This document shows, piece by piece, positions 2,378-24,943 of a DNA stretch of 24,949 nucleotides. Source of the DNA: a virus (lineage: Duplodnaviria; Heunggongvirae; Uroviricota; Caudoviricetes); IMG/VR virus record IMGVR_UViG_3300022187_000019. The stretch is one strand, 5' to 3'. The notes under the pieces are model-generated. The model made no database searches. It was not told the origin of the DNA and saw only the letters and a list, made by a program, of their open reading frames with translations. The position numbers were made by a program, and so were the translations under genes. Every line of letters starts with the position of its first letter. Positions within the stretch are counted from its first letter, which is position 1.

Positions 2378-2853
2378 TCGTCGTCGCCTGTGTCATCATC
2401 GTCCCGGCCGTCATCCATCGATTCCGGGATGCGGCGACGCAGGAAGCGCTCCAGTTCTTCGAACACTTCGACCAGCGAGACGAAATTATAGACGCCGCTG
2501 TCCTCATTGTTCACCAGTTCCACGGCGATCGCTCGCTCGTAGATGTCGAACTCACCGTCATCGTGGAGGACGATCAACGGCTCGTTGTCCGCCTCCTCCG
2601 TGATTTCGACGCTGGTGTAGAGGAACGCGGTGCCGTCGTTCTCATCGACCAGTTCGAGATCGTAGTCGGTGTTGAGATAGTCGATGACTTCGATCATGGT
2701 CGCCGAGCCGAGATAGGCCGAGCTACCCTTGATGTAGTCGAGGTCGCCTGCGAAGGCGATTTCCCAATCACCATTGTCGTAGAAGACAAAGGCCGGGGTT
2801 CCCGGAGAGTCCCGATCGGGGACCTCCGTGTCGAGGAACAGCAATGTGGACAT
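2374..2853 (-). CDS. Hypothetical acidic protein with an internal repeat
   Basis: Coupled start/stop. PAFVFYDNGDWEI and PLIVLHDDGEFDI are repeats. Confidence 0.75.
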   Translation of the reverse strand: MSTLLFLDTEVPDRDSPGTPAFVFYDNGDWEIAFAGDLDYIKGSSAYLGSATMIEVIDYLNTDYDLELVDENDGTAFLYTSVEITEEADNEPLIVLHDDGEFDIYERAIAVELVNNEDSGVYNFVSLVEVFEELERFLRRRIPESMDDGRDDDDTGDDE

Positions 2854-18749: not shown

Positions 18750-18778
18750 TTGACATTGCTCGAATCAGTTGTTAGAGG
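18750..18778 (+). promoter_or_regulatory. Promoter for the large ncRNA
   Basis: TTGACA-N17-TAGAGG. Confidence 0.72.
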
Positions 18779-18784
18779 CTCAGG

Positions 18785-19628
18785 AACACCCCGCTTGAGG
18801 GGGATAGCGTTGGGTAACCAACGTAAAGGAGGTATGGCCACATAACTCCGCCGGCTTGCCGGTCAATTCAAGCAAGTGCAGTCAGGTCCGCGAGGATCGC
18901 TTCTGGTAACGGGAGCTAGGCTGTTAGCAGGACAAGGCCCTTGAGGGGATAGAGGAGAGCCAGATCGGTGACCTCGAACGCCGGAGTAGAACCCGGAGCT
19001 TGTGTCTAACCTGCGGCAGCGGATGATAAAGCACAAGGTCATCAGTTCAAGACTTAGCGGTCAAGAGCAATGATCAGTTTGGTAGGGTGAAGGTCCTGCT
19101 CGACGGTCTTGGTAGTGTTTAGCGACATGACGGACATGAGGCGACTAGCATTCCGCAGGTGGAAACATCAGTGGAACTAGGAGGTAGCTCGTCTCGGTGG
19201 CTTGCAAACTTAGCTTAGTGGTAAAGCAACGGACTCTTAATCCGTGGATCGCTGGTTCGAACCCAGCAGTTCATATCAAAACGCAAAGATTGCTTCGACT
19301 GTATGTGAAAGACGCCTAATACCGCAGGGTTCGCCCAATGCGGTCTGCTCCTAGCCGGCAAAGCGAAGAGTGGTTGGTGAAAGAAAGTTCGTTGCCCCGT
19401 CGCGGGGGCTTAATGGCGGTAACACGTCAACGGTCTGGGAATCGCCGAATATCATGCAGTGTCGCCGCTAATGCCAGCGGCCCCGTGAGAATCGGGAAAA
19501 ATAGGCGGCGTTGATCTGGGACCGGGCTACTCGCAAGAGGGCTTGGTGGATAAGGTGGCAAGGTGCCTCGCAAGGGTTCCGTAATCCTCCGAACGACAGA
19601 TCGCAACGGGTGTAGTCTCAGCCTGTCT
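18785..19628 (+). ncRNA. GOLLD-like giant ncRNA (~840 nt)
   Basis: ORF-free, next to tRNAs, GNRA-rich. The 3' half has TAATACCGCAGGGTTCG...CCTAG...AAAG..GAGTGGTTGG..AGAAAGTTCG and ends GGGTGTAGTCTCAGCC, which I recall as GOLLD consensus blocks (not searched). Confidence 0.72.
19204..19278 (+). tRNA. tRNA-Lys(CTT)-like element embedded in the GOLLD RNA; broken acceptor stem, no CCA
   Basis: D arm GCTT/AAGC, anticodon arm ACGGA-CTCTTAA-TCCGT, T arm GCTGG-TTCGAAC-CCAGC. The acceptor stem has two mismatches near its end. Confidence 0.8.
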
Positions 19629-19640
19629 ATATTCATCACC

Positions 19641-19790
19641 GTGGTTGGTTGGTCAGGTCTGCGGACCTGTCTTCTGGATTGGTGCCAGCAAGCCGACCAC
19701 AATTTCACTCGCTTTGTAGATGCTGAGCCGTTGACCGACGGAACTACCCGACATGCGACCTAACCCGCGTATTCGCGAGGTTCAGTGTCT
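19641..19790 (+). ncRNA. Two small three-way-junction structures 3' of GOLLD
   Basis: GTGGTTGGTT/AGCCGACCAC closes two hairpins; CTGAG/TTCAG closes two more. Confidence 0.4.
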
Positions 19791-19813: not shown

Positions 19814-19842
19814 TTGACATCCAGTCAAGTTTCAATTATCAT
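19814..19842 (+). promoter_or_regulatory. Promoter of tRNA operon 1
   Basis: TTGACA-N17-TATCAT; CTTGAC-N5-GTCAAG palindrome. Confidence 0.8.
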
Positions 19843-19891
19843 TCGGACTTCAACAGCGGTTCTCCGCTTTTCAGGATTTCACGAGCTTCCC

Positions 19892-19984
19892 ATGCGCAAC
19901 ATTCCCGCCATCAACATGATCGCAGCGCCGGCCAATATGGTCCCGGCCGTGATTGCGTGCGCGCTCCCGACGAAGGACGACTGA
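19892..19984 (+). CDS. Putative 30-aa attenuator leader peptide of tRNA operon 1
   Basis: MRNIPAINMIAAPANMVPAVIACALPTKDD*. Codons 3-22 encode only N/I/P/A/M/V. Confidence 0.72.
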   Translation: MRNIPAINMIAAPANMVPAVIACALPTKDD

Positions 19985-20016
19985 CCCGGTCGTCTCGTCT
20001 CATAAGGGATTTTTCG

Positions 20017-20048
20017 AAAGGGTCGCGAAAGCGGCCCTTTTTCGTTTC
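20017..20048 (+). terminator. Intrinsic terminator (attenuator) between the leader and the first tRNA
   Basis: AAAGGGTCGC-GAAA-GCGGCCCTTT followed by TTCGTTTC. Confidence 0.85.
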
Positions 20049-20123
20049 TCGGTGTAGCTCAGTTGGTAGAGCGCCTGCTTTGGGAGCAGGAAGTCGTCGG
20101 TTCGATCCCGGCCACCTTGACCA
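20048..20123 (+). tRNA. tRNA-Pro(TGG)
   Basis: Cloverleaf, loop TTTGGGA, encoded CCA, two acceptor-stem mismatches. Confidence 0.9.
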
Positions 20124-20129
20124 TTTCAT

Positions 20130-20206
20130 CTAGCTGTAGCGCAGTCTGGTAGCGTGTGCCCCTCGGACGGGTGAGGTCGCAGGTTCAAATCCTGCCAGCT
20201 AGACCA
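20130..20206 (+). tRNA. tRNA-Pro(CGG)
   Basis: Cloverleaf, loop CTCGGAC (A37), C1:G72, CCA. Confidence 0.88.
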
Positions 20207-20213
20207 GTTTCAT

Positions 20214-20284
20214 AGCAGTGGATCAGTTCGGGGCGGGCCTCATAAGCCTGCTACCCAGAGGCGCACATCCTCTCACTGCTACCA
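20214..20284 (+). tRNA. Atypical tRNA-Met(CAT)
   Basis: AGCAGTG/CACTGCT acceptor, loop CTCATAA, CCA. D arm is degenerate and the T loop is CGCACAT. Confidence 0.7.
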
Positions 20285-20294
20285 GTTTCAACAT

Positions 20295-20369
20295 GCTCGA
20301 TTAGCTTAATGGTAGAGCGCTGGTTTCACATGCCGGAGGCCGGAGGATCAGTCCCTCCATCGAGCACCA
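20295..20369 (+). tRNA. tRNA-Val(CAC)
   Basis: Cloverleaf, loop TTCACAT, T loop ATCAGTC, CCA. Confidence 0.85.
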
Positions 20370-20378
20370 ACCGAATAT

Positions 20379-20454
20379 GCTTCGTTAGCTCAGTTGGTAG
20401 AGCATCCGTATGACATGCGGAAGGCCGTAGGGTCAGGACCTACACGAAGCACCA
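20379..20454 (+). tRNA. tRNA-Val(GAC)
   Basis: Cloverleaf, loop ATGACAT, T loop GTCAGGA, CCA. Confidence 0.85.
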
Positions 20455-20458
20455 GTTT

Positions 20459-20560
20459 TGGGTCTGCTCGGGACAACATTGGCGAGCAGAGGCAACCGGG
20501 AGATAACCTTGACCCTTACGCACGCTTCGGCGGCGGAGTAGGGAACCTTCCGACCCTCAG
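20459..20560 (+). ncRNA. Unidentified ~100-nt structured non-tRNA element inside the tRNA array
   Basis: GGGTC/GACCC closing stem, TCTGCTCG/CGAGCAGA hairpin, and a UUCG-capped hairpin. Confidence 0.5.
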
Positions 20561-20566
20561 ATTTAT

Positions 20567-20642
20567 GGGGCAGTAGCTCACTTGGGAGAGCGTCGGCTTT
20601 GCACCCCGGAGGTAGAGGGTTCGATCCCCTCCTGTTCCACCA
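20567..20642 (+). tRNA. tRNA-Ala(TGC)
   Basis: G3:U70, loop TTTGCAC, CCA. Confidence 0.92.
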
Positions 20643-20649
20643 GTTTCAT

Positions 20650-20727
20650 TGGCGTATAGTCTTCTAGGTGAAGGCGCTCGGCTGTTAACCGAGATTGAGG
20701 CTGGTTCGAATCCAGCTACGCCAGCCA
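20650..20727 (+). tRNA. tRNA-Asn(GTT)
   Basis: Cloverleaf, loop CTGTTAA, G73, CCA. Confidence 0.92.
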
Positions 20728-20736
20728 TTTGGTTGA

Positions 20737-20810
20737 TGTTCTGTAGCACAACGGTAGTGCATCCGACTGATAATCGGCAGATGGAAGTTCGATTCTTCCC
20801 AGAACAACCA
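20737..20810 (+). tRNA. tRNA-Ile(GAT)
   Basis: Cloverleaf, loop CTGATAA, CCA. Confidence 0.92.
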
Positions 20811-20820
20811 TACCCTTCCA

Positions 20821-20863
20821 TGTGCCGCGAGCCTCTTTGAGGTTTCGCGGCACAGTCATTTTT
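20821..20863 (+). terminator. Terminator ending tRNA operon 1
   Basis: TGTGCCGCGA...TCGCGGCACA hairpin with a T-rich tail. Confidence 0.7.
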
Positions 20864-20865
20864 AC

Positions 20866-20893
20866 TTGACATTATGCGTCTCTAAAGTATCAG
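20866..20893 (+). promoter_or_regulatory. Promoter of the lipoprotein-GSP cassette
   Basis: TTGACA-N16-TATCAG. Confidence 0.6.
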
Positions 20894-21314: not shown

Positions 21315-22460
21315 TCCGTAAGCAGGTCGCCCAGCGCCTCAACTGGCAGCAGGCCGTCGCCGATGACGGACTGATCTGGCACACCGACGGCGTCGATCCC
21401 TACTGGCGGGAGGGAACCTATTATTCCTTCGCGCCGGGCGAGATCGACCTGTTCGATGAGGCCACCCGCAGCGTCTACAACCTCCTGCTTGCAGCCGGCG
21501 ATGTCATCGTCGGGGACAAGAGCGGGGAATGGCTGACGAAGATGGGCATCCCGCAGAAGGCGCACGCCGCCATCCGCCGGGCGTGGGATCAGGAACCCCC
21601 CTGCCCTCAACTACGGCCGGTTCGACTTCGGTTATGACGGCCGGACCGAACCCAAGATGTTCGAGTTCAATTGCGACACCCCGACCTCGCTGCTGGAAGC
21701 CTCGGTGATCCAGTGGCGCTGGAAGGAGCAGGTCTTCCCGGACCTCGACCAGTTCAACTCCATCCACGAGCATCTGGTCACCAAGTGGGCGGACATCCGC
21801 CCCTTCCTCCCCAACGGCGAAATGCACTTCACGCATTTCTTCGACGATGCCGGTGAAGACACCGTGACGACCGCCTATCTGCGGGACACCGCAGCAGCCG
21901 GCGGTATCGGCTCGAAGGTCATCCTCATCGAAGACATCGGTCTGTCGGCTGATGGGCGCTTCGTTGATTTGGACGAAGAGGTCATCACGACCCTGTTCAA
22001 ACTCTACCCGTGGGAATGGCTGGTCAACGAGGACTACGCCGACGCCGTGTTCAACAGCGTCGATACGATGGTCTGGCTGGAGCCGATCTGGAAGATGATG
22101 TGGAGCAACAAGGGCATCCTGCCCCTGCTCTCCAAGCTCGATCCCGGCAACCCCTTCCTGCTCCACAGCAGCTTCGAGAAGCCGGCGACCGGCTCCTATG
22201 TCAAGAAGCCGCTGCTGGCTCGTGAGGGAGCCAACATCGAGATCGTGGATCGTGATGTGCTGGCGGCCACCGGCGGCGACTACGGCGAGGAAGGGCACGT
22301 CTATCAGGAGATGTATCGTCTCCCGGAAACCGCGCCCGGCGTCTTCCCGGTGATCGGTAGCTGGATCGTTGATGGCGAGCCGTGCGGTATCGGCATCCGC
22401 GAGGACGGCCTCATCACGAGCAACACGGCAAAGTTCGTGCCGCATGTGATCGGGGGCTGA
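21311..22460 (+). pseudogene. Glutathionylspermidine synthase-like ATP-grasp protein (YgiC/YjfC family), split by a +1 frameshift at C6 21596-21601
   Basis: Removing one C gives ...QEPPALNYGRFDFGYDG...EFNCDTPTSLLE..., then KLYPWEW, WSNKGILPLL, VKKPLLAREGANI and IGSWIV...GIRED. Confidence 0.88.
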
Positions 22461-22464
22461 CGCG

Positions 22465-22722
22465 ATGGCCCCCGTCTCGCCCGCCTCCATCGCCGGCCGC
22501 CTCAAGCGCAGCCAAATTTCGACGGTTATCAACCTCGACGAGAACTTCTGCATCCTCGGGTGCAGCGAGTCTTGTGCGATCCGGTTGACCAAGGACACGC
22601 TGCGGCGGCCGGCGCTCGTCGAGGAGGGGCCTCGCAGCGATAACGGCTATCGGACCTTCCGCCTTTCGGTGGTGGGTCAGTCCGTCCAGAAAATCCTTCT
22701 CAGCGAGCGAGGTTTGGGATGA
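22465..22722 (+). CDS. Hypothetical protein
   Basis: Operonic position; ATGA coupling to the channel gene. Confidence 0.6.
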   Translation: MAPVSPASIAGRLKRSQISTVINLDENFCILGCSESCAIRLTKDTLRRPALVEEGPRSDNGYRTFRLSVVGQSVQKILLSERGLG

Positions 22723-23099
22723 GAAAGATAGTCCACCTCCTCGGCCGGAGCTTCCTGACCGTCGCGATCGTCTACGGCATTGTCGTGGTCCTCGCCGCCG
22801 GGCTGTTTGATCTGGCCGAAGCCAAATATGGGATTGGCGATTCCTTGTGGTGGGCCTTCACCACCGCGACCACGACAGGATACGGCGATATGTATCCCGT
22901 CACGGTGGTCGGCCGAGGGGTGGCTATCTTCCTCATGCACTTCGGGCCGGGCTTCGCCTTTCCCGTGATGACGGCAATCATGTCGGCCAAGCTGATCGTG
23001 GATAGTGATGCGTTCACCCATGCTGAGCAGGAGCAGATCAAGAACGACCTCGCGGCGATCCGCGAGATGCTGCATCGTCAGCAGGACGATAGAAAGTGA
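22719..23099 (+). CDS. Minimal two-TM potassium channel (KcsA/Kcv-like)
   Basis: TM1, pore helix SLWWAFTTA, filter TTTGYGD, TM2, C-terminal coiled coil. Confidence 0.92.
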   Translation: MRKIVHLLGRSFLTVAIVYGIVVVLAAGLFDLAEAKYGIGDSLWWAFTTATTTGYGDMYPVTVVGRGVAIFLMHFGPGFAFPVMTAIMSAKLIVDSDAFTHAEQEQIKNDLAAIREMLHRQQDDRK

Positions 23100-23617
23100 G
23101 CGTGATGGATTTGTTCTGTTCGACCTGCGGGACGGCTCATGTGGATCACGAGTATCCCATGAAGTGCCCCGGCTGCTCGGCGATGACGTGGGGAAGTCCC
23201 ACCGGTGTCGTCGTCGTTCTCCAGCGGGTTCGCGTCGGCATCGGCCGGCGCGGTCTTCTCATGGCCCGGCGGGCGATCGAGCCTCACCGTGGCGGCTGGG
23301 CGTTCTTGGGCGGGCATGTCAATCGCGGTGAGTCCTTCGAACAAGCCGCTTGTCGTGAGTGGCTGGAAGAGACCGGCCGGACCATAACCGCCGACAGCCT
23401 CGAATATGTGCAGAGCTATCCGGTAGCGGGCGGCGCGCAGACGATGGCGGTATTCCGTAACCCATGGGTGCTGACCGCCGGGCACTATGAGCGGCTTCGG
23501 CTGTGCCCGGAGAACATGGAGTTCGGCCTCCTCACTGAGTATGAGCAGGTCGCTGATCTGTGCTTTCCCACGCACCGCGAGATCGCGGAGCAATGCTTCA
23601 ACGACTGCTGGTTCTGA
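23096..23617 (+). CDS. Zinc-ribbon NUDIX hydrolase
   Basis: CSTC...CPGC; NUDIX box GHVNRGESFEQAACREWLEETG. Confidence 0.9.
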   Translation: MSVMDLFCSTCGTAHVDHEYPMKCPGCSAMTWGSPTGVVVVLQRVRVGIGRRGLLMARRAIEPHRGGWAFLGGHVNRGESFEQAACREWLEETGRTITADSLEYVQSYPVAGGAQTMAVFRNPWVLTAGHYERLRLCPENMEFGLLTEYEQVADLCFPTHREIAEQCFNDCWF

Positions 23618-23657: not shown

Positions 23658-23686
23658 TTGACAGCCAGACTGTCGCTGTGTATAGT
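23658..23686 (+). promoter_or_regulatory. Promoter of tRNA operon 2
   Basis: TTGACA-N17-TATAGT. Confidence 0.85.
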
Positions 23687-23736: not shown

Positions 23737-23799
23737 ATGGAACGCTTCGGATTCAAACGAGATCGCCGGGAACGCGGCGAACGAGGTTTTAGCCTCTAA
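23737..23799 (+). CDS. Putative 20-aa leader peptide of tRNA operon 2
   Basis: MERFGFKRDRRERGERGFSL*. The upstream module is paralogous to that of leader 1. Confidence 0.65.
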   Translation: MERFGFKRDRRERGERGFSL

Positions 23800-23835
23800 T
23801 CCGGTAGTGCTCCTAGCTATCGGTGCTGTTTTAGC

Positions 23836-23911
23836 GGATCGATAGCTCAGTAGGTAGAGCGGCGGATTCTTACTCCGCAGGTGCTGGGTTCAAGCCCCAG
23901 TCGATCCTCCA
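23836..23911 (+). tRNA. tRNA-Lys(CTT)
   Basis: Cloverleaf, loop TTCTTAC, unusual U73, CCA. Confidence 0.88.
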
Positions 23912-23930
23912 AATCAGCATCGATATTTAG

Positions 23931-23964
23931 ACGCCCTACCGCCCCCGGTGGGGCGTTTTTCGTT
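23931..23964 (+). terminator. Intrinsic terminator after the first tRNA of operon 2
   Basis: ACGCCCTACCG-CCCC-CGGTGGGGCGT followed by TTTTCGTT. Confidence 0.75.
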
Positions 23965-23977
23965 GTTCCCGGTCTTT

Positions 23978-24070: not shown

Positions 24071-24457
24071 TTGGCTTGGGATGATGAGGCGAAACGTGCC
24101 TATGCGAAAAACTACTATGCCGAGAACGGTGCCAAGATGCGGAAAGTCACCGCTGAGGCGCAAGCTCTTCGTAGGCAGTTAGCGCAAGAATACGTTATCG
24201 ACTATCTCAGCAAGCACCCGTGCATAGACTGTGGGGAAGATGACATAATCGTCCTTGAGTTTGATCATGTCGATCGGGCCACCAAGGAGTTCAATGTCTC
24301 TAAGGCAGTCAGAGACGGAACAAAGTTACCTCGACTGATCGAGGAGATCAATAAGTGTGTCGTCCGGTGCGCGAACTGTCACCGCCGGAAGACATACGCG
24401 GAAATGGGTTACACCAGCCGATTGTATCCTCATCAGAAAAGGCAAATGCAGGTATAG
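24071..24457 (+). CDS. Free-standing HNH endonuclease
   Basis: AGGAG SD with TTG start; CIDC...LEFDH...CANCHRRK; lower GC than its neighbours. Confidence 0.88.
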   Translation: MAWDDEAKRAYAKNYYAENGAKMRKVTAEAQALRRQLAQEYVIDYLSKHPCIDCGEDDIIVLEFDHVDRATKEFNVSKAVRDGTKLPRLIEEINKCVVRCANCHRRKTYAEMGYTSRLYPHQKRQMQV

Positions 24458-24862: not shown

Positions 24863-24943
24863 GCCGCTGTAACCCCCTCCGCTACGAACGGAGAGAAAGG
24901 TAACTGGATGCAAATGCAGGTTCGAATCCTGTCAGCGGCTCCA
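24863..24943 (+). tRNA. D-armless tRNA-Arg(ACG)-like RNA with a 22-nt variable region
   Basis: GCCGCTG/CAGCGGC acceptor, 7-nt linker, CTCCG-CTACGAA-CGGAG, canonical T arm, CCA. Confidence 0.75.

Follow-up and report, generated by a model that had tools for sequence, protein, structure and literature searches.

Organization of the tRNA region

The stretch of DNA analysed here, referred to as the window, comprises 24,949 nucleotides (nt) of the virus record IMGVR_UViG_3300022187_000019 (Caudoviricetes) and contains two transfer RNA (tRNA) operons that are each preceded by a short open reading frame (ORF), the leader, which spells the amino acids of the tRNAs encoded downstream. A third unit of this type follows just beyond the window end. 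The window is the reverse strand of part of a 151,382-bp IMG/VR record with 60% G+C. The phage is large, its host group are marine alphaproteobacteria and its closest cultured relatives are the Erythrobacter phages XM05 and vB_EliS-L02 (L02), the latter being the first CbK-like phage published for Erythrobacter (PMC9127768). For tRNA calling ARAGORN and Rfam were used. ARAGORN finds 28 tRNA genes, all located in one region of the genome, and at least three more tRNA-like genes were missed by both programs, i.e., a CAU element (20213-20286), an Arg(ACG)-like element (24863-24940) and a Tyr(GUA) gene past the window end. Unit 1 (19814-20863) contains the following features:

19814-19842, + strand: sigma-70-type promoter of tRNA operon 1, TTGACA-17 nt-TATCAT, 11 of 12 consensus positions
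19855-19868, + strand: stem-loop AGCGG-TTCT-CCGCT at the transcript 5' end (sequence reading and folding)
19873-19876, + strand: AGGA motif 15 nt 5' of the AUG, an unusually long Shine-Dalgarno spacing
19892-19984, + strand: leader ORF 1 (P0002), 30 codons, open and homologous in eight lineages
19898-19957, + strand: regulatory run, codons 3-22, all N/I/P/A/M/V
19927-19947, + strand: hairpin within the regulatory codons (CCGGCC..GGTCCCGG), corresponding to regions 1:2 in relatives
19959-19973, + strand: weak candidate antiterminator strand of the window copy, partner 20017-20027, -12.4 kcal/mol
19976-19994, + strand: stop-codon hairpin whose loop contains or adjoins the stop codon (19982-19984), -13.7 kcal/mol with the terminator 5' arm
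20016-20047, + strand: intrinsic terminator with 11-bp stem, GAAA loop and U tract, -18.4 kcal/mol
20048-20810, + strand: tRNA operon 1 with Pro(UGG), Pro(CGG), the CAU tRNA-like element, Val(CAC), Val(GAC), a 112-nt spacer, Ala(UGC), Asn(GUU) and Ile(GAU)
20822-20863, + strand: hairpin and T run at the end of operon 1, shortly followed by another promoter (TTGACA at 20866) (sequence reading; the consensus scan did not list it)

The promoter, the 30-codon ORF and the terminator before the tRNA genes are thus present as originally predicted. The ORF begins 50 nt after the promoter, the terminator hairpin proper spans 20016-20041 and its U tract ends 1 nt 5' of tRNA-Pro. The predicted tRNA list stands for Pro(UGG), Pro(CGG), Val(CAC), Val(GAC), Ala, Asn and Ile, which are all called, while the predicted Met tRNA is an uncalled, divergent CAU cloverleaf with an encoded CCA end and a non-canonical T loop. 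Neither ARAGORN nor Rfam calls a Met tRNA in operon 1 of the window; in the relatives a called Met(CAU) is present in operon 1. The CAU element and the Arg(ACG)-like element may be degenerate or unusual tRNAs. The combination of a promoter, an AGGA motif and an ATG 15-16 nt further on occurs genome-wide only at leaders 1 and 2, and the idea that the motif is a general ribosome-site cassette of the phage was therefore discarded.

Unit 2 is located further downstream in the window:

23658-23686, + strand: promoter of tRNA operon 2, TTGACA-17 nt-TATAGT, 11 of 12 consensus positions
23737-23799, + strand: leader ORF 2 (P0003), 20 codons, residues 2-18 all E/R/F/G/K/D, conserved in nine other lineages
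23801-23812, + strand: region A, immediately 3' of the leader-2 stop, complement of the 5' arm of the terminator behind tRNA-Lys(CUU)
23929-23966, + strand: intrinsic terminator after the first tRNA of operon 2 (tRNA-Lys(CUU), 23836-23911), 13 pairs and T tract, present in all relatives

Operon 2 encodes the tRNAs Lys, Lys, Gly, Gly, Asp, Glu, Glu, Arg-like, Phe and Arg. The promoter of unit 3 lies approximately 195 nt and leader 3 approximately 230 nt past the window end. Leader 3 is a 26-codon ORF (L140:2742-2822, minus strand). Not counting the initiator Met, 23 of its 25 residues are S/Y/L/T/H/Q/C/W, including a 20-residue run. As the -10 box is 7 nt from the AUG, its mRNA is probably leaderless. 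The downstream operon 3 encodes Ser, Tyr, three Leu, Thr, His, two Gln, Ser, Cys and Trp tRNAs, with a strong intrinsic terminator in the interval between tRNA-Ser(CGA) and tRNA-Tyr in all relatives (L140 ~2560-2620, minus strand, window-equivalent ~25399-25430). The three tRNA blocks with their matching leaders partition all 20 amino acids.

Amino acid composition of the leaders

The residues N, I, P, A, M and V account for 29% of the six-frame codons and for 33% of the proteome of the phage. As the original prediction had stated, codons 3-22 of leader 1 encode nothing but these six amino acids, which make up 23 of its 30 residues, and this is far beyond chance: no other run of the set in the six frames of the 151-kb genome is as long, the next one comprising 11 codons, and approximately 7e-6 runs of 20 codons are expected by chance in the genome. 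This holds for each set, since the longest run genome-wide is in every case found in the leader before the respective tRNA block, with 20 (next 11), 17 (next 15) and 20 (next 11) residues for leaders 1, 2 and 3. In a blind scan of small ATG-initiated ORFs upstream of tRNAs the three leaders were top-ranked (2e-9, 6e-7 and 2e-5). The same scan was applied to two control phages, Xanthomonas phage XacN1 and Ruegeria phage RpAliso, and no matching leaders were found at their tRNA arrays. The scan accordingly does not give such matches by default, and the feature is not universal.

The match between leaders and tRNAs is at the level of amino acids and not of isoacceptors or anticodons, because under strict wobble rules the tRNAs of the phage read 51 of the 62 in-set leader codons and genome codon usage predicts 50.0. 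Codon-to-anticodon matching was therefore rejected as a property of the leaders. The observation that the GTC and GTG codons of leader 1 fit the two Val anticodons is true and, given these numbers, carries no weight.

Conservation of the leaders in related phages

Nine further distinct lineages were compared, i.e., XM05 and L02 from GenBank and G001-G004 and G007-G009 from IMG/VR; G005, G006 and G010-G012 are near-duplicates of counted lineages. A 14-mer scan of IMG/VR returned mainly chance matches and longer patterns were used instead. Leader 1 was found in eight of the nine lineages (XM05, L02, G001, G002, G003, G007, G008 and G009), leader 2 in all nine and leader 3 in all seven that reach that far. 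In the G004 genome (130,138 bp) a promoter, a structured non-coding RNA of about 300 nt and then tRNA-Pro are located at L137 4600-4920.

The architecture of unit 1 is retained in the relatives, with sequences that differ. A TTGACA promoter is found at the equivalent position, the AGGA motif before the leader AUG is conserved and the 5' hairpin has a counterpart of different sequence. The leader-1 units of all lineages show a hairpin in the regulatory codons, which in G002 is formed at the same codons by an unrelated sequence, a stop-codon hairpin, which differs in sequence in all relatives, and a GC-rich terminator hairpin with U tract, the stem sequences of which differ, followed after a few bases by tRNA-Pro. 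The leader-1 frame comprises 28-31 codons and is open in nine lineages. An alignment of orthologues had been proposed as a check of the original prediction, and it shows what was anticipated for the eight other lineages: an open frame in which composition is conserved and sequence is not.

In every lineage every leader keeps all amino acid types of its own set (6/6, 6/6 and 8/8). The leader-3 frame of ~25 codons retains W, C, H and Y throughout, and the order of W, C, H, Y and Q is permuted between lineages within a hairpin of changing sequence. The frames are open in every lineage carrying them, so that differences in leader length are whole codons. Without correction for phylogeny, 24 of 31, 7 of 10 and 28 of 33 replacements in leaders 1, 2 and 3 stay within the set, compared to 29%, 31% and 38% for single-base neighbours, and 28 extra synonymous codons were counted in columns with an in-set consensus residue. 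These comparisons indicate that selection acts on the amino acid composition in the leader frame.

Co-variation in Caulobacter phages

In the Caulobacter phages CcrRogue and phiCbK the tRNAs are grouped differently, and the leaders are correspondingly different. CcrRogue carries a leaderless ORF with a Y/R/Q/F/V/I core, followed by a terminator and by Tyr-like, Phe, Val, Ile, Ile, Val, Gln, Gln, Ile and Arg tRNAs. A second ORF is rich in A/L/T/K/P/H/S and is followed by a terminator and by Pro, Pro, Thr, Lys, Lys, three Leu, His and Ala tRNAs. Both CcrRogue-type leaders are present in phiCbK. The fit between leaders and tRNAs in these two phages is coarse and not exact. The predicted co-variation of the peptide with tRNA content is seen between the three operons and in CcrRogue and phiCbK, while on a fine scale it is imperfect, as for Arg, Thr and His in phiCbK.

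CcrRogue also encodes two tRNAs with Lys anticodons (CUU and UUU) that are 87 and 90 nt long and have long variable arms (L138 6366-6547). The leader before the block with these tRNAs is Ser-rich.

Alternative pairings of the leader RNAs

For leader 1, codons 15-22 are complementary to the terminator 5' arm together with the adjoining upstream bases in XM05, L02, G003, G007, G008 and G009, i.e., in six of the nine lineages, with duplex energies of -27 to -32 kcal/mol and z-scores of -3.0 to -4.8. The duplex of G001 is weaker (-21 kcal/mol, z-score -1.2). The duplex becomes weaker when partners are exchanged among XM05, the L02 group and G001, which indicates that both strands changed together. 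Codons 15-22 of the relatives also pair locally with codons 2-13, and in these six lineages leader 1 is thus predicted to have the classical attenuator layout with the alternative pairings 1:2, 2:3 and 3:4. In folds cut before the terminator 3' arm, the 5' arm is captured by codons 15-22. Full-length folds were discarded as a test since they are uninformative: the terminator never opens in them, with or without ribosome masks. The terminator sequence of the window differs from that of the relatives. Both pairing candidates of the window, the strand 19959-19973 and the stop-codon hairpin, would be covered by a ribosome at the stop codon and left uncovered by one on codons 3-18. An earlier idea, in which the loop of the stop-codon hairpin pairs with the terminator 5' arm as a switch, was abandoned as this pairing is not conserved (6 pairs in the window, 5 in L02, 4 in G002 and 0 in XM05, G001 and G003).

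In operons 2 and 3 a strong terminator is located behind the first tRNA. In operon 2, the 12 nt right after the leader stop (region A) pair with the 5' arm of this terminator, and the flanks of tRNA-Lys(CUU) form an extra stem that places the tRNA at the tip of a long helix. Across ten lineages 84% of the cells of the region A helix are paired, with two compensatory pairs. For the operon-2 helices overall this value is 86%, compared to 34-50% with slid partners, and ten pairs are changed on both sides, a number reached by 0 of 500 shuffles. Of these ten, eight belong to the flank stem and two to the antiterminator helix. In the modelled footprint, a ribosome at the leader-2 stop masks the antiterminator strand. 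The tRNA-Lys(CUU) flank helix (window 23801-23966), with compensatory change in 8 of 13 pairs, resembles a processing stem.

In operon 3 the leader stop is directly followed by a hairpin with the invariant loop CUGACGC, to which an equally invariant GCGUCAG in the terminator 5' arm is perfectly complementary. Such pairing between a loop and a strand outside the hairpin is beyond nested folding models. The three units share one geometry: a ribosome that has arrived at the stop codon would cover the candidate antiterminator or sit directly beside it, and one on the early regulatory codons would leave it uncovered.

Proposed mechanism and competing explanations

A strong terminator is placed between the sole promoter and the tRNA genes, therefore conditional read-through is needed. 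Only translation explains that one frame per leader spells the downstream amino acid set, and the leader frames are presumably translated. Because of this translation-dependent amino acid match, the terminator that has to be bypassed and the presence of alternative pairings, the units are probably ribosome-mediated leader-peptide transcription attenuators that gate the tRNA operons. In the proposed mechanism, the host RNA polymerase would initiate at the promoter and a ribosome would translate the 30-codon leader 1. If the ribosome reaches the stop codon, the strong terminator before tRNA-Pro would form and the tRNA genes would not be transcribed. If usable tRNAs are scarce, the ribosome would dwell on the N/I/P/A/M/V codons, an upstream segment would pair with the terminator 5' arm, and sequestration of this arm would result in read-through into the Pro, Met-like, Val, Ala, Asn and Ile tRNA genes. 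In the layout of the relatives, a ribosome on the early codons would free region 2, and if no ribosome is present or the ribosome has passed, pairings 1:2 and 3:4 would form. Leaders 2 and 3 would act likewise for the K/G/D/E/R/F and S/Y/L/T/H/Q/C/W blocks, by which supply would be matched to demand for each set. It is more likely that stalling leads to read-through than the reverse, and the sensed signal would be tRNA supply rather than amino acid supply. A further step, about as likely as not in our judgement, is that large phages carry a demand-sensing tRNA homeostat, i.e., multivalent attenuators that jointly cover all 20 amino acids and in which the decoding speed sets the transcription of each block. 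That anticodon-nuclease defences are the trigger, as the original prediction proposed by way of example, is pure speculation.

Several observations weigh against attenuation as formulated here. The attenuator proposed originally finds its 1:2, 2:3 and 3:4 pairings in six of nine lineages, while the antiterminator of the window itself is indistinguishable from shuffles: its candidates reach -12.4 and -13.7 kcal/mol compared to -18.4 kcal/mol for the terminator and are equalled by 17-21% of shuffles (17% for 19959-19973). For leader 1 of G002 no antiterminator was found, and full-length minimum-energy folds always retain the terminator. Set codons of the relatives extend into region 2 as well, and stalling at that position should promote termination. 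The gap from stop codon to terminator is ~130-160 nt in operons 2 and 3, which makes the timing hard to explain. The distance of 15-16 nt from AGGA to AUG is too long for a canonical ribosome site, and in operon 1 of G004 the leader ORF is replaced by the structured stretch of ~300 nt. The leader codons are not enriched for the phage anticodons and thus stalls at GCC, CCC, ACC and UCA would not be relieved by the phage tRNAs, unless U34 reads the whole four-codon box. The CcrRogue leader retains ten Ser codons and no Ser tRNA was called, and the phiCbK leaders retain Arg, Thr and His codons and no tRNAs for Arg, Thr and His were called.

A competing explanation is that the leaders are translated sensors with another or the opposite output, in which smooth translation results in read-through and a stall in termination, as in a stringent-like brake, or in which the stability or processing of the precursor is controlled. 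In its favour, truncated folds computed with no ribosome show the terminator 5' arm already sequestered, and the arm is released when a ribosome is placed on codons 16-22. The antiterminator is the default structure in operon 2, the amino-acid-level match suits sensing of amino acid supply, and the tRNA-Lys of this operon is located at the end of a long covarying stem resembling a processing stem. We nevertheless consider this explanation unlikely: a stall at the early regulatory codons would take place in region 1 and thereby release region 2, the antiterminator element of all three units would be masked or melted once a ribosome reaches the stop codon, and a shut-off of tRNA genes upon slow decoding would be a positive loop with no obvious gain for a lytic phage. 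The lack of a clear antiterminator in the window copy and in G002, the poor ribosome-site spacing and the leaderless operon 1 of G004, together with the array-internal terminators that follow the first tRNA in operons 2 and 3, speak for a bypass of the terminator without any role of the leader, either by a phage or host antitermination factor or by leakiness, in which case the small ORFs would be untranslated or encode micropeptides with their own function. This has to be judged very improbable, as it leaves unexplained why the 20 amino acids are divided in the same way among three peptides and three tRNA blocks, why composition is fixed when residues can change places, and why the leaders of CcrRogue and phiCbK follow their own tRNA grouping.

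Spurious ORFs are common in high-GC DNA, which also abounds in Ala, Pro and Val codons, and hairpins constrain parts of the leaders, such as the last codons of leader 2, so that the frames might be chance ORFs or by-products of RNA hairpins. This explanation is refuted by the genome-wide run test, by the conservation with shuffled order, by the maintenance of W, C, H and Y in a ~25-codon frame and by the negative controls XacN1 and RpAliso.

Neighbouring features

Directly upstream of unit 1 a probable GOLLD RNA (window 18750-19700) with its own TTGACA promoter at 18750 was found. It covers the full length of the RF02032 model with a score of 140.1 bits, which is below the gathering score of 150 (E-value 8e-38), and a tRNA-Lys(CUU) is embedded in it (19203-19277). 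The 112-nt spacer in the interval between Val(GAC) and Ala(UGC) of operon 1 (20455-20566) is structured (-36 kcal/mol); neither for this spacer nor for the Thr-His spacer could a homologue be identified among the related phages.

Three genes separate tRNA operons 1 and 2 (window 21657-23617). The first is a glutathionylspermidine-synthase-like ATP-grasp gene (21657-22460), whose Pfam match begins at profile position 102 and whose N-terminus may be encoded in the preceding ORF, followed by a potassium-channel-like gene (22719-23099) and a NUDIX gene (23096-23617). Within operon 2, between tRNA-Lys(UUU) and tRNA-Gly, a 128-codon ORF (24071-24457) shows CxxC and H-N-H-like motifs and no Pfam match. 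As G004 carries a similar ORF of this type elsewhere in its tRNA array, a homing-endonuclease-like insertion is suggested.

Relation to known attenuators and significance

The units resemble the enterobacterial leaders ilv, thr, trp, his, leu and pheA, the features of which are taken here from established knowledge, in the intrinsic terminator before the regulated genes and in the mutually exclusive hairpins that overlap the ORF (1:2, 2:3 and 3:4, here predicted in six relatives). A promoter-proximal short ORF rich in codons for several chosen amino acids is shared in particular with the leaders of ilvGMEDA (Ile/Val/Leu) and thr (Thr/Ile). In contrast to the enterobacterial leaders, the phage units would regulate tRNA genes instead of biosynthetic enzymes, the leaders mix six to eight amino acids instead of runs of one to three, three leaders jointly cover all 20 amino acids, operons 2 and 3 carry a terminator behind the first tRNA, and the phage leaders have no sequence or Rfam match. 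In pheST of E. coli, a leader peptide with cognate codons (pheM) attenuates a gene of the translation apparatus, to which the target of the phage leaders also belongs. However, the pheST target is an aminoacyl-tRNA synthetase, one amino acid is sensed and the system is cellular and not viral. T-box riboswitches likewise sense the tRNA status and switch between terminator and antiterminator upstream of translation-related genes, but they bind uncharged tRNA directly via one specifier codon and without a ribosome, whereas the start and stop codons of the phage ORFs are conserved. In the 11-kb tRNA region no match to the Rfam families His_leader, Leu_leader, Thr_leader, Trp_leader, Phe_leader and T-box was obtained at the gathering threshold or with E-values up to 1.

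To our knowledge, the described leader-peptide attenuators all regulate genes of amino acid biosynthesis or aminoacylation. The genes that would be regulated here are tRNA genes and belong to neither group, while a conserved short ORF after the promoter, the enrichment of set codons and a terminator before the regulated genes are all found. In full-text searches of the published literature no description of leader-peptide control of tRNA genes was found and nothing on the regulation of phage tRNA-array expression; neither leaders nor attenuation are mentioned in the genome papers on L02, Lacusarx and phiCbK. The class of mechanism is known, and what is new is the tRNA target, the partition of many amino acids and the predicted antiterminator across a tRNA.

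Two further systems are comparable. In mycobacteria, leaderless polycysteine short ORFs are reported to act as Cys-responsive attenuators (bioRxiv 10.1101/834739), and leader 3 and the CcrRogue leader resemble them in having the first codon at the presumed transcription start. Ribosome-mediated attenuation by trpL was reported for Sinorhizobium meliloti (PMC6614838), which belongs to the alphaproteobacteria, as do the hosts of these phages. In both cases one amino acid is sensed and metabolic genes are controlled, which distinguishes them from the phage units.

The units bear on the question of why phages carry tRNA arrays and how these are used. If attenuation applies, tRNA genes would join the targets of this type of control, and operons 2 and 3 would add a new architecture, in which the antiterminator helix spans a whole tRNA to reach the terminator behind it. 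Each leader would respond only to a shortage of its own amino acid set, which would offer an experimental handle, and the cultured relatives vB_EliS-L02, XM05, CcrRogue and phiCbK are suited to such tests. The leaders would constitute compact natural sensors of the decoding speed of many codons simultaneously. Physiologically, the phage would measure translation capacity directly and would replace those tRNAs that run short in the course of infection, be it by host shut-off, tRNA decay or tRNA-cleaving defences.

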